8,093 nucleotides of DNA from the IMG/VR virus record IMGVR_UViG_2630968500_000006; one strand, 5' to 3'. Shown piece by piece: positions 4,085-8,093 of this stretch (the first letter of the stretch is position 1; the number at the start of each line of letters is the position of its first letter). The notes under the pieces were generated by a model. That model saw nothing but the letters and a program-made list of their open reading frames with translations, was not told the origin of the DNA and searched no databases. Source of the DNA: a virus. Taxonomy: Duplodnaviria > Heunggongvirae > Uroviricota > Caudoviricetes. Position numbers and translations under genes: made by a program.

Positions 4085-4126
4085 ATTGCTCTAATGTATT
4101 GCTATTTCTTTAGTTGAGGGTATTAT
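4085..4126 (+). promoter_or_regulatory. C1-repressor operator-like 17-mer (4085-4101, ATTGCTCTAATGTATTG) overlapping a sigma70-like promoter (-35 TTGCTA 4099-4104, 16-bp spacer, -10 TATTAT 4121-4126) upstream of lpa
   Basis: 14/17 match to the P1 C1 operator consensus ATTGCTCTAATAAATTT as I recall it. The operator overlaps the -35 of a well-spaced promoter. P1 lpa (gene 10) is known to be C1-controlled. Confidence 0.55.
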
Positions 4127-4710: not shown

Positions 4711-5904
4711 GTGACCTGGGACGATCACAAGAAGAATTTTGCTCGCCTGGCGCGAGATGGTGGTTACACCATCGCACAATATGCCGCCGAGTTTAATCTC
4801 AACCCAAACACCGCACGTCGTTATCTCCGTGCATTCAAAGAAGACACCGGAACAGCGGATAGCCGTAAGCCAAATAAGCCTGTCAGGAAACCACTAAAAA
4901 GCATGATCATTGATCACGCTAATGATCAACGTGCAGGTGATCACATTGTGGCTGAAACGGCTGAAAAACAAAGAGTTAATGCTGTTGTCAGTGCCGCAGT
5001 CGAGAACGCTAAGCGCCAAAATAAGCGCATAAATGATCGTTCTGATGATCATGACGTGATCACCCGCGCCCACCGTACCTTACGTGATCGCCTGGAACGC
5101 GACACCCTGGATGATGATGGTGAACGCTTTGAATTCGAAGCTGGCGATTACCTGATAGATAACGTTGAAGCGTGGAAGGCCGCGCGCGCTATGTTGCGTC
5201 GTTCCGGAGCTGATGTTCTGGAAACCACTCTTCTGGAAAAGTCTCTTTCTCATCTCCTTATGCTGGAGAACGCCCGGGATACGTGTATTCGCCTGGTGCA
5301 GGAAATGCGCGATCAGCAAAAAGACGATGATGAAGGTACTCCGCCTGAATACCGTATCGCGAGCATGCTAAACAGCTGTTCCGCGCAGATAAGCAGCCTG
5401 ATCAACACCATTTACAGCATCCGGAATAACTATCGAAAAGAAAGCCGGGAGGCGGAAAAGCACGCTTTGTCTATGGGGCAAGCTGGCATTGTTAAGCTGG
5501 CATACGAACGAAAGCGTGAAAATAACTGGTCAGTGCTGGAAGCAGCTGAATTCATCGAGGCGCATGGCGGGAAAGTGCCGCCCCTGATGCTGGAGCAAAT
5601 CAAAGCCGATCTGCGTGCTCCTAAGACCAATACCGATGATGAGGAAAGGCAAACAGCCGTCGGTGGCCCTTCTCTTGAAGATCTGGACAAAGTTGCGCGA
5701 GAACGGGCCGCCAACCGCCGCGCCGATGCCGCATTGTGGATTGAGCAGCGTAGGGAAGAAATCGCCGATATCGTTGATACAGGCGGTTATGGGGATGTTG
5801 ATACTGAAGGTGTATCAAACGACCCATGGCTGGAACAAGACCTGGACGAAGACGAGGAGGAAGACGAAGAAGTCACCCGCAAGCTATACGGGGATGATGA
5901 TTAA
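4711..5904 (+). CDS. pacA: PacA, terminase small subunit (pac-recognition subunit), 397 aa, GTG start
   Basis: 397-aa ORF with ribosome-binding site AGGAAG (4700-4705). Contains the hexamer array characteristic of the P1 pac site in its 5' region. N-terminal helix-turn-helix-like segment and acidic C-terminal tail. The stop TAA (5902-5904) overlaps the pacB ATG. Confidence 0.93.
4904..5062 (+). other. pac packaging (cleavage) site: seven TGATC(A/G) hexamers, four left and three right of a central region, each containing a Dam GATC
   Basis: Hexamers read directly from the sequence: TGATCA at 4904-4909, 4911-4916, 4923-4928, 4938-4943; TGATCG at 5034-5039; TGATCA at 5046-5051 and 5057-5062. 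The 4 + 3 arrangement over about 160 bp inside pacA is the known architecture of the P1 pac site. Confidence 0.85.
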
Positions 5905-7418
5905 TGGCCAGAAGTTGCGTAACGGATCCACGTTGGCGCGAGCTGGTGGCGCTATATCGTTATGACTGGATTGCGGCCGCTGATGTTTTGTTCGGCAAAA
6001 CACCTACCTGGCAGCAGGATCTGATTATTGAGTCTGTGCAGGAACAGGGTAGCAAGACATCTGTTTCGTCTGGTCACGGTACCGGGAAATCAGACATGAC
6101 TTCTATCATGATCATGTTGTTCATAATCATGTATCCCGGTGCCCGCGCCATTATCGTTGCGAACAAAATTCAGCAGGTAATGACCGGTATATTCAAGTAC
6201 ATCAAGATAAACTGGGCTACTGCCACCAGCCGTTTTCCATGGCTTGCTGATTATTTTGTTCTGACAGAAACCGCTTTCTATGAGGTTACTGGTAAAGGTG
6301 TATGGACTGTAGTACCGAAGGGCTTTCGTCTGGGAAGTGAAGAAGCTCTCGCCGGTGAACACGCAGATCATCTTCTGTATATTATCGATGAAGCCTCCGG
6401 TGTCAGTGATAGAGCTTTCGGTATCATCACCGGTGCTCTTACCGGACAGGATAACCGCATCTTATTACTGTCACAGCCTACACGCCCAAGCGGCTATTTC
6501 TACGATACTCACCATAAACTGGCCAAGCGTCCTGGTAACCCAGATGGCGTTTATACGGCGATCACGCTTAACAGTGAGGAATCACCGCTGGTAACGCCAG
6601 AATTTATCAAAATGAAGCTGGCGGAGTACGGCGGGCGTGATAACCCTATGTACATGATTAAGGTGCGCGGCCTATTCCCTAAATCACAGGACGGCTTCCT
6701 TCTTGGACGTGATGAGGTTGAACGTGCAACGCGGCGGAAAGTTAAGATTGCCAAAGGATGGGGCTGGCTTGCATGTGTGGACGTTGCTGGTGGTACGGGA
6801 CGGGATAAGTCAGTTATCAATATCATGATGGTGTCCGGCCAGCGAAATAAACGCCGTGTAATCAACTATCGAATGCTGGAATACACAGACGTTACAGAAA
6901 CGCAGCTTGCCGCCAAAATTTTCGCAGAATGTAATCCTGAGCGATTCCCCAATATCACCATAGCGATAGATGGAGATGGCCTGGGTAAAGCAACAGCGGA
7001 TCTGATGTACGAGTATTATGGTATTACCGTACAGCGTATACGCTGGGGTAAAAAGATGCATAGCCGTGAAGATAAGAGCCTGTACTTTGATAAACGTGCT
7101 TATGCCAACGTTCAAGCCGCAGAGGCCGTAAAATCTGGTCGTATGAGACTGGATAAGGGTAATGAAACTATTGAGGAAGCGTCGAAAATCCCTGTAGGGA
7201 TTAACTCCGCAGGTCAATGGAAGGTGATGAGTAAGGAGGATATGAAGAAAAAACTCAACCTGCACTCACCAGACCATTGGGATACATATTGTTTCGCTAT
7301 GCTGGCGGATTATGTTCCCCAGGATGAAGTGCTTAGCGTCGAAGACGAAGCGCAGGTTGATGAGGCTCTGGCATGGCTTAATGAATTAATATTTGCTCTA
7401 ATAAATTGTGTTTTTTAA
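5904..7418 (+). CDS. pacB: PacB, terminase large subunit (ATPase/nuclease), 504 aa
   Basis: 504-aa ORF translationally coupled to pacA. P-loop/Walker A-like SGHGTGKS and Walker B-like [10 protein letters not shown]. Position and size as in P1. Confidence 0.93.
7392..7408. promoter_or_regulatory. C1-repressor operator-like 17-mer TTTGCTCTAATAAATTG overlapping the last codons of pacB
   Basis: 15/17 match to ATTGCTCTAATAAATTT. It shares the 10-mer TTGCTCTAAT with the lpa operator at 4085-4101. Two occurrences of such a 10-mer in 8 kb are very unlikely by chance. Confidence 0.45.
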
Positions 7419-7533
7419 CTACCGATGTTACATTGAGCCTGACCTCTTGCGCCTTGAGGCATTTTCGGTTTATGCTTATCAGGCACCTCATTAAAACGGG
7501 TGCCGGGATTGGCCTCCCGCTTAAGTCTAAGGC

Positions 7534-7567
7534 GATACAGACGCCGCTCGCGTCTTTTTTTTGTATC
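7534..7567 (+). terminator. Candidate rho-independent terminator downstream of pacB: GACGC-CGCTC-GCGTC hairpin followed by T8, nested within an outer GATACA/TGTATC inverted repeat
   Basis: Inner stem 7540-7544 / 7550-7554, then eight T (7555-7562). Outer arms GATACA 7534-7539 and TGTATC 7562-7567. On the minus strand the run is A-rich before the hairpin, so it is oriented for plus-strand termination. Confidence 0.5.
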
Positions 7568-7727
7568 GGCGTACACGCACACCTCTACAATGGTGGGCTG
7601 TATGGGGCTACCTTCGGGTAGGCTGGTTACCTTGGACGCCAGTAAGGCCAACTCCGTACAGTCCACCGCCAGCAAGATTGGTCTCTTCTGCGGTGGTTAC
7701 ATACCAACGTCTAAGGAGGCTGCCAAT

Positions 7728-7949
7728 ATGGCTACTATCCCTACCCCAACTCATCCTGAATTTATCTGGCGCTTTTACTCCTGCCAAAAACGTCACTATC
7801 ACTTCGTTATTGCACCAACAGAAGATGAGGCCCGCTCTCAGCTTCCTGACGCCCCATGTATTTTCTCTGCCCGTTTTTCCACTGATTCACGCAATTCTCT
7901 CAGTTACTGGTGCCTCCCTGTTAACGCTTCTGCTCAGGAGGGACTATGA
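7728..7949 (+). CDS. Hypothetical small protein, 73 aa
   Basis: ATG at 7728 preceded by a consensus Shine-Dalgarno AAGGAGG (7713-7719) with 8-nt spacing. It is the 3' part of the 149-aa track ORF 7500..7949, whose upstream portion spans the terminator and lacks a ribosome-binding site. Product MATIPTPTHPEFIWRFYSCQKRHYHFVIAPTEDEARSQLPDAPCIFSARF... has no motif I recognise. Confidence 0.4.
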   Translation: MATIPTPTHPEFIWRFYSCQKRHYHFVIAPTEDEARSQLPDAPCIFSARFSTDSRNSLSYWCLPVNASAQEGL

Positions 7950-8056
7950 GAACGTCATTAGTCACCCGTGAAGAGATGATCGAGGCAATTGAACAGCACA
8001 CTGCCTGTATCAGTACCAGGGATATACCAGGCGTTATTGCCAACTACTTCATGTGA
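7946..8056 (+). CDS. Hypothetical very small protein, 36 aa, translationally coupled to the preceding ORF
   Basis: ATG 7946-7948 overlaps the upstream stop (ATGA) and is preceded by GGAGGG (7938-7943). Product MRTSLVTREEMIEAIEQHTACISTRDIPGVIANYFM. All three plus-strand frames close between 8054 and 8093. Not in the ORF track, presumably because it falls below the length cutoff. Confidence 0.25.
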   Translation: MRTSLVTREEMIEAIEQHTACISTRDIPGVIANYFM

Positions 8057-8093
8057 CCTGCCCCCACGATTAGATACAACACTCAGTTAGTAA

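Follow-up and report, generated by a model that had tools for sequence, protein, structure and literature searches.

What purpose is served by a 17-bp sequence closely resembling the operator of the bacteriophage P1 repressor C1 when it lies within the last codons of the packaging gene pacB? The question is raised by an 8,093-nt stretch of Caudoviricetes DNA, IMG/VR record IMGVR_UViG_2630968500_000006, the whole of which was analysed and is referred to below as the window. The answer proposed is that the 17-mer TTTGCTCTAATAAATTG, located at window positions 7392–7408 on the + strand, is very likely an operator for a P1-type C1 repressor, a paralogue of the P1 operator Oc4 (formerly Op51), standing at the head of a second immI-like cassette which replaces the pacB–c1 spacer. 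The site is taken as a C1 operator because of the sequence match and its statistics, the homology to Oc4 and its promoter P2c4, a conserved position and strand, its absence from phages that do not use C1, the RNA and open reading frame (ORF) content of the cassette, and the near-identical C1 encoded on the source plasmid.

The 17-mer as a predicted C1 operator

Comparison of TTTGCTCTAATAAATTG with the asymmetric C1 operator consensus ATTGCTCTAATAAATTT, as given in PMC8546580, confirmed the 15 identities in 17 positions reported in the initial annotation. Matches to the consensus with no more than three mismatches numbered two in the whole window, against a mean of 0.03 in shuffled sequences, and none of 200 shuffles contained two or more. 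The scoring of both strands with a weight matrix, which had been put forward as a check, was conducted using a matrix trained on the 20 C1 operators annotated in P1 (AF234172), including Omat, for which the operator sequence is legible only on the strand opposite its annotation. The best score in the window, 22.0 bits, was that of 7392–7408, followed by 19.5 bits for positions 4085–4101 and 5.8 bits for the third-best site, while no score above 17.1 bits arose in 300 first-order Markov simulations of the window. Leave-one-out scoring returned values at or below 22 bits for 11 of the 20 P1 operators, which places 7392–7408 in the middle of their range. Each deviation from the consensus has a precedent in P1, where OrepL likewise begins with T (position 1) and Oref and Olpa likewise end in G (position 17), and the near-invariant core spanning positions 3–11, TGCTCTAAT, is unbroken. 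An inverted second operator, which would have made the site bivalent, was sought in the window and none was found, the next-best nearby score being 1.6 bits. The two operators predicted in the window are thus:

7392–7408, + strand: predicted monovalent C1 operator, homologue of P1 Oc4/Op51 (consensus match, weight matrix, alignment with P1, and recurrence in 76 of 79 loci)
4085–4101, + strand: Olpa (Op94), the other C1 operator of the window, upstream of lpa and identical to P1 Olpa

Database comparison established that the window is an exact match to positions 88996–97088 of NZ_CP060066.1, a 148-kb plasmid from Escherichia coli G5, and that it represents a segment of a P1-like phage-plasmid with hsdM, phd-doc, pdcA/B, lpa, pacA and pacB. 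The c1 gene of this plasmid (99317–100168) lies approximately 2.2 kb past the end of the window, and its product is identical to P1 C1.100 at 281 of 283 residues. Extension of the weight-matrix scan to the entire 148 kb returned 14 sites of at least 18.9 bits, all of them placed in P1-derived segments and among which 7392–7408 ranked seventh; the remaining sites scored 16.2 bits or less, with the two matches placed in cargo DNA scoring 13.2 and 14.4 bits. As annotated by the Prokaryotic Genome Annotation Pipeline (PGAP), NZ_CP060066.1 is rich in insertion sequences (ISs), carries the cargo genes lac, fec and dcu, and apparently lacks most P1 morphogenetic genes. A canonical immI region was also sought in the plasmid: none is annotated, and no further operator plus icd pair was detected.

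The arrangement of the corresponding region in P1 provided the means of placing promoters around the site. In P1, Oc4 (AATGCTCTAATAAATTT, 48140–48156) overlaps the −35 hexamer of P2c4 (formerly P51a), which consists of TTGTAT, a 17-bp spacer and TGcTATCTT; a downstream promoter, P1c4 (formerly P51b), consists of TTGACC, 17 bp and TATAGT, and c4 starts approximately 200 bp from Oc4. When the window was aligned with P1 immI, the operator fell on Oc4 and the two hexamer pairs fell on P2c4 and P1c4, respectively. The operator-linked promoter was accordingly placed by homology to the annotated P2c4, and the following elements are predicted:

7406–7411, + strand: −35 hexamer TTGTGT of the putative C1-controlled promoter, the first three bases being the last three of the operator; aligns with TTGTAT of P1 P2c4
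7426–7434, + strand: extended −10 element TGtTACATT (hexamer 7429–7434), 17 bp from the −35 hexamer, with a predicted start at about 7441; aligns with TGcTATCTT of P1 P2c4
7447–7476, + strand: putative second, operator-free promoter (TTGCGC 7447–7452, 18 bp, TATGCT 7471–7476), with a predicted start at about 7483; homologue of P1 P1c4 (P51b)

The proposal that a repressor-controlled promoter lies just downstream of the packaging operon is thereby supported by both positional and sequence homology to Oc4/Op51, and the −35/−10 pair that had not been discernible by eye was located by the alignment with P2c4, although a generic sigma-70 scan made no call there (vide infra). The predicted start of the second promoter coincides with the first position of the match to the isrK RNA model, and promoters occupy the same place in D6 (TTGCGC, 18 bp, TATATT) and Ss-VASD (TTGACT, 17 bp, TATATT). 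An alternative second promoter, TTGAGG (7454–7459), 17 bp and TATCAG (7477–7482), was considered and rejected: a final T is missing from its −10 hexamer, and TTGCGC-18-TATGCT agrees better with the alignments to P1 and D6.

The positional relationship between operator and icd was assessed in 79 Icd loci recovered from IMG/VR by a search with an Icd alignment, using an operator threshold of at least 15.7 bits on the + strand. An operator was located 335–363 bp upstream of icd in 76 of these (567 bp in a single case, L083), and the three exceptions comprised two loci without upstream sequence and one with a deletion extending from mid-pacB to the icd ribosome-binding site. In this last contig (L061, 2390–3001), pacB codon ~196 is joined to the icd ribosome-binding site, and what lay between them (remaining pacB sequence, operator, leader and c4) has been lost. 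Seven upstream contexts were distinguished, namely pacB, the canonical sim side, after mat in place of res-mod, by isaA, in place of ref, after dbn, and one that is unplaced. Sequences from different contexts start to resemble one another within a few bases of the operator, and the −35 and −10 elements hold their position across cassettes even where the spacer sequences are unrelated. Cassettes at sites other than pacB occur in P1-like backbones (IMG/VR loci L074–L089, L037, L047 and L066), with up to three on one contig, as exemplified by IMGVR_UViG_2698536372_000019 with L017, L083 and L088.

Sequence variation, counted as variant cells and alignment columns over 32 distinct pacB-adjacent sequences, was distributed as follows:

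pacB end and junction: 57 variant cells in 25 columns
operator (variable at positions 1, 4 and 12 only): 16 variant cells in 17 columns
promoter spacer: 29 variant cells in 14 columns
extended −10 element: 1 variant cell in 9 columns
hexamers of the second promoter: 0 variant cells in 12 columns

By way of contrast, D6 and the lambdoid phage Ss-VASD possess the isrK–C4 module together with a promoter close to the leader, yet the loci retrieved from them contain no site scoring over 9 bits. The operator and its promoter are thus an addition specific to C1-using elements, as would be expected of a working regulatory site.

Two departures from the common pattern were recorded among the relatives. 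In L020 (IMGVR_UViG_3300029461_000001), the natural operator variant TTTCCTCTAATAAATTG / TTTCCTCTAAT has C in place of the near-invariant G at position 4 and scores 15.7 bits, making this a candidate operator-down allele. In many of the loci L075–L077 and L086–L089, at about −345 from icd, the promoter spacer contains an inverted second operator (TTTGCTCTAATAAATCA, 21 bits) that shares one base with the first; the resultant bivalent, near-palindromic operator is absent from P1 Oc4. Matches to the cassette covering at least 80% of 7300–8093 were present in 258 of 5426 complete E. coli genomes (~5%).

The inserted cassette and the end of pacB

In P1, pacB and the convergent c1 gene are separated by only 24 bp. 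In the plasmid from which the window derives and in RCS47-type elements, approximately 1.9 kb replaces this spacer, with junctions at the pacB and c1 stop codons. Nucleotide homology between the window and P1, P7, SJ46 and phiW39 ends at 7386, equivalent to P1 93204 and located in the pacB stop codon, whereas homology to RCS47, JL22 and vB_EcoM-673R5 runs on to 8053. The features of the inserted segment, together with the ORF on its left, are:

5904–7418, + strand: pacB ORF, 504 amino acids, of which the last ten codons (7389–7418) represent read-through into the cassette, the normal stop position 7386–7388 reading TTA
7387–8053, + strand: left part of the immI-like (c4-icd-ant) cassette, delimited by the homology breakpoints; its right junction is at the c1 stop codon
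7483–7560, + strand: isrK-type leader RNA (Rfam RF01394, 60.8 bits), ending in a terminator-like hairpin at 7539–7555 plus a T run identified by terminator scan
7509–7515 and 7525–7532, + strand: putative c4 target sites a1 and b1 in the leader, complementary to the c4 loops
7586–7673, + strand: C4 antisense RNA gene (Rfam RF01695, 75.9 bits, full-length match)
7678–7716, + strand: putative c4 target sites a2 (7678–7684) and b2 (7708–7716), assigned by complementarity, b2 overlapping the icd Shine–Dalgarno sequence; the layout is that of the annotated P1 a2/b2
7728–7949, + strand: icd, 73 amino acids, homologue of the cell-division inhibitor, 74% identical to P1 Icd and Icd-like in the NZ_CP060066.1 annotation
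7946–8056, + strand: 5' stub of ant, 36 codons, IS-truncated and overlapping icd (ORF and NZ_CP060066.1 annotation)
8054–8093, no strand assigned: end of the IS3-family element ISSen4 inside ant (annotated in NZ_CP060066.1 from 97049 onward; 8053 is the last position homologous to relatives)

Complementarity to a1/b1 and a2/b2, sufficient for predicted duplexes of 7–9 bp, resides in the unpaired c4 segments CCUUGGAC(G) and AGGCCAA. While icd is intact in the window, ISSen4 interrupts ant after codon 36; in relatives ant is intact and encodes a 372-residue protein with an ORF6N middle domain and a KilAC domain, 56% identical to P1 Ant1 and near-identical to it over the C-terminal ~140 residues. 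Judged from this content, the pacB–c1 insertion appears to constitute a full immI-like unit, whose c4 specificity is distinct. It is described here as paralogous rather than as the canonical immI because it is located between pacB and c1 and not, as in P1 and P7, between sim and kilA. Pfam assigned no family to either PacB or Icd.

It follows from these breakpoints that the description of the site as part of pacB did not hold, in that the operator is part of a c4-icd-ant cassette for which the pacB stop codon was the insertion point. The site is located inside the annotated ORF, as had been stated: the TAA at 7416–7418 is separated from it by 7 nt, or by 10 nt when counted to the last base of the stop codon. 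The operator falls in coding sequence because a TGA to TTA substitution extends the pacB ORF by ten codons to this TAA. Thus, P1 pacB ends AAT GAA TAA, and the genes of 673R5, RCS47 and JL22 end AAT GAA TGA, followed by ATA and then the operator, while the window reads AAT GAA TTA ATA. In 61 related pacB-adjacent copies, the pacB stop codon is located 6–9 nt upstream of the operator in 58; two have a short deletion, and in them the TAA within the operator serves as the stop; and only one shares the window's arrangement, with the operator inside the pacB ORF. On this comparison the overlap between operator and pacB is incidental and uninformative about function, the extension of pacB being a stop-codon loss rather than a conserved feature.

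A number of additional observations relate to the cassette and the remainder of the window. The last 40 nt of the window are the end of ISSen4, which accounts for stray short matches of the window to unrelated phage records. A partial pseudo-coding sequence annotated by PGAP as 'ash family protein' (7602–7703; NZ_CP060066.1 96597–96698) lies over the greater part of the C4 RNA gene, and relatives have complete coding sequences annotated under that name; this is probably a protein annotation superimposed on an RNA gene. The operator/promoter region is almost identical in the type of cassette shared by 673R5 and the window and in that shared by RCS47 and JL22, while the two types diverge strongly in c4 and in its target sites, which suggests that at least two c4 specificities occupy the same pacB–c1 site. 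At the other end of the window, a gene for the M subunit of a type I restriction-modification system (488–2050, − strand) is located upstream of phd, and homology to P1 begins only at about 2145–2151, so that the window's left part constitutes a further mosaic replacement with respect to P1.

Proposed regulation and its alternatives

In P1, transcription of the c4-icd-ant operon is repressed by C1, and the C4 RNA is needed in addition (PMC8198154). By the equivalent mechanism proposed here, monomeric C1, encoded some 2.2 kb downstream on the same plasmid, would bind to 7392–7408 and, as the terminal TTG of the operator forms the first half of the sigma-70 −35 hexamer TTGTGT, would block RNA polymerase at the homologue of P2c4/P51a, a promoter that would otherwise transcribe the isrK-type leader, c4, icd and ant to its right. 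The operator-free promoter 40 bp downstream would keep C4 RNA supplied in the lysogen, and C4, by pairing with a2/b2 at the icd ribosome-binding site, would block synthesis of both Icd and Ant. Inactivation of C1 would then permit the upstream promoter to add its transcription and favour expression of Icd and Ant. In NZ_CP060066.1 itself, the presence of ISSen4 in ant would reduce the controlled output to c4, icd and the 36-codon stub of ant.

Several points weigh against this interpretation. Binding by C1, repression, and the transcription start in the pacB–c1 cassette are matters which we infer, and c1 itself sits outside the window. The affinity of the predicted site for C1 may be influenced by its off-consensus bases, T and G at positions 1 and 17, respectively. 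The operator-linked hexamers are weak, matching at three and four of six positions plus the TG motif, P1 P2c4 being equally weak by that count; likewise, the generic sigma-70 scan of 7300–7800 called no promoter near the operator, its only call being on the minus strand at 7787–7759, and P1 P2c4 would fail the same scan. The identity of the upstream P1 promoter as the C1-sensitive one is something we presume from the operator position in the GenBank annotation together with work from the Schuster laboratory. Finally, as NZ_CP060066.1 is a decayed P1 derivative with an interrupted ant, regulation in this particular copy may be vestigial.

A different role for the same site, also raised in the initial annotation, is that of a roadblock, whereby C1 bound at 7392–7408 would chiefly halt polymerase reading through from pacA-pacB before it enters c4-icd-ant, with no repression of a local promoter. 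The location of the operator 3 nt past the normal pacB stop position and on the strand transcribed through pacAB is compatible with such a role, as are the presence of a predicted sigma-70 promoter, PpacB, inside pacA of P1 and the result of the terminator scan, which detected no terminator-like site between pacB and the operator. However, the same operator recurs beside the sim, mat, isaA, ref and dbn regions with its orientation and its distance to c4/icd unchanged, indicating that its position is set by the cassette rather than by pacB, and it overlaps a −35/−10 pair of conserved position. Moreover, the late promoter LPpac requires Lpa, which is itself repressed by C1 via Olpa, so that on the basis of annotation and inference little read-through would be expected while C1 is active. 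The roadblock proposal has acquired no specific support and is improbable as the principal function, although the operator may have a roadblock effect as a by-product.

It is also conceivable that the operator of NZ_CP060066.1, though intact in appearance, is a vestige without regulatory consequence, given that ant is destroyed after codon 36 and that the plasmid is decayed, having by PGAP annotation neither most of the P1 morphogenetic genes nor a canonical immI. Against this, c1, c4 and icd remain intact, as do the operator and both promoters; many intact relatives share the identical operator; and Icd, described in PMC11897509 as a cell-division inhibitor, would be expected to make control of the transcription unit matter still. 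Such a vestige is accordingly judged highly improbable; it would in any event be confined to the NZ_CP060066.1 copy and leave the identity of the site unaffected. Lastly, the possibility that an AT-rich 17-mer near a gene end resembles the consensus by chance, to which the AT-rich surroundings and the two off-consensus positions might lend colour, was rejected on statistics and conservation, being contradicted by the shuffles and simulations, by recurrence at a fixed distance from icd in 76 of 79 loci, and by the homology to Oc4.

Significance and relation to known systems

With these alternatives considered, the identification of 7392–7408 as a probable C1 operator at the head of an immI-like cassette is retained. 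Op51 and the immI operon are classical and the insertion has already been noted, hence the operator at the pacB–c1 cassette is very probably, as judged from sequence, a new example of a known switch. It does, however, give regulatory meaning to an insertion for which earlier records listed only two small ORFs plus an ant gene, and which may now be viewed as a second antirepressor cassette, wired to C1 and with an antisense-RNA specificity of its own. This bears on the choice between plasmid maintenance and lytic growth in P1-like phage-plasmids, which are often carriers of resistance genes, and on their mutual interference. The occurrence of the cassette in seven upstream contexts and at up to three per contig, with similarity starting within a few bases of the operator, leads us to advance a more tentative suggestion: the operator-capped unit (operator, two promoters, leader, c4, icd and ant) could be a mobile, stackable immunity cassette of which the 17-bp operator is the constant left end. 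If this were so, then by analogy with P1 and P7 stacked c4 specificities could shield a resident prophage from heteroimmune antirepressors, and the operator might serve as a recombination joint for cassette exchange.

The presence of additional material between pacB and c1 was reported for pTZ20_1P and RCS47 as two short hypothetical ORFs plus ant (Venturini et al. 2019, PMC6906374). This is the same insertion in the same place as the cassette described here; that paper is silent on an operator, the word occurring 0 times, and the operator is unannotated in those GenBank/RefSeq records that were examined.

The closest known counterpart is Oc4 (Op51)/P2c4 (P51a) at the head of the P1 immI operon c4-icd-ant1/2 (AF234172 48140–48183), with the two 17-mers matching at 15 of 17 positions. 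Each is an asymmetric C1 site of 17 bp, lies on the strand that is transcribed and has its 3' end over a −35 hexamer that is followed, after 17 bp, by an extended −10 element; each is succeeded by an operator-free second promoter ~40 bp downstream, by c4 ~200 bp downstream, and then by icd and ant. They differ in location, the P1 system lying between sim and kilA and that of the window between pacB and c1; in the overlap of operator and −35 hexamer, which is 2 nt in P1 Oc4 and 3 nt in the window, where the operator also lies inside an extended pacB ORF; in the c4 recognition loops and hence in specificity; and in the Ant protein, which in cassettes of the window type has an ORF6N middle domain. 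P1 Olpa (Op94)/Plpa shares the geometry of 7392–7408, in that the operator ends ATTG and its last three bases, TTG, open the −35 hexamer; unlike 7392–7408, Olpa controls lpa, the gene for the late-promoter activator, rather than an antirepressor cassette, and it deviates from the consensus elsewhere.

The remaining comparison is with the isrK–C4 antirepressor/Rha modules that occur in D6, in Stx phages and in other lambdoid phages, and with the isrK locus of Gifsy-1 (PMC4825925), where an isrK-type leader, a C4-type RNA, a downstream regulator and a leader-adjacent promoter are encountered; Gifsy-1 transcripts are described as either stopping at the IsrK terminator or reading through it. These modules have neither a C1 operator nor an upstream second promoter, and their hosts are without a P1-type C1. 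The leader is of the isrK type (RF01394) in the window, D6 and Ss-VASD, and of the c4-a1b1 type (RF03163) in P1 (L003 518–570). Since the isrK-type leader carries a1/b1 sites complementary to the c4 loops, the two types of leader appear to be functional counterparts.

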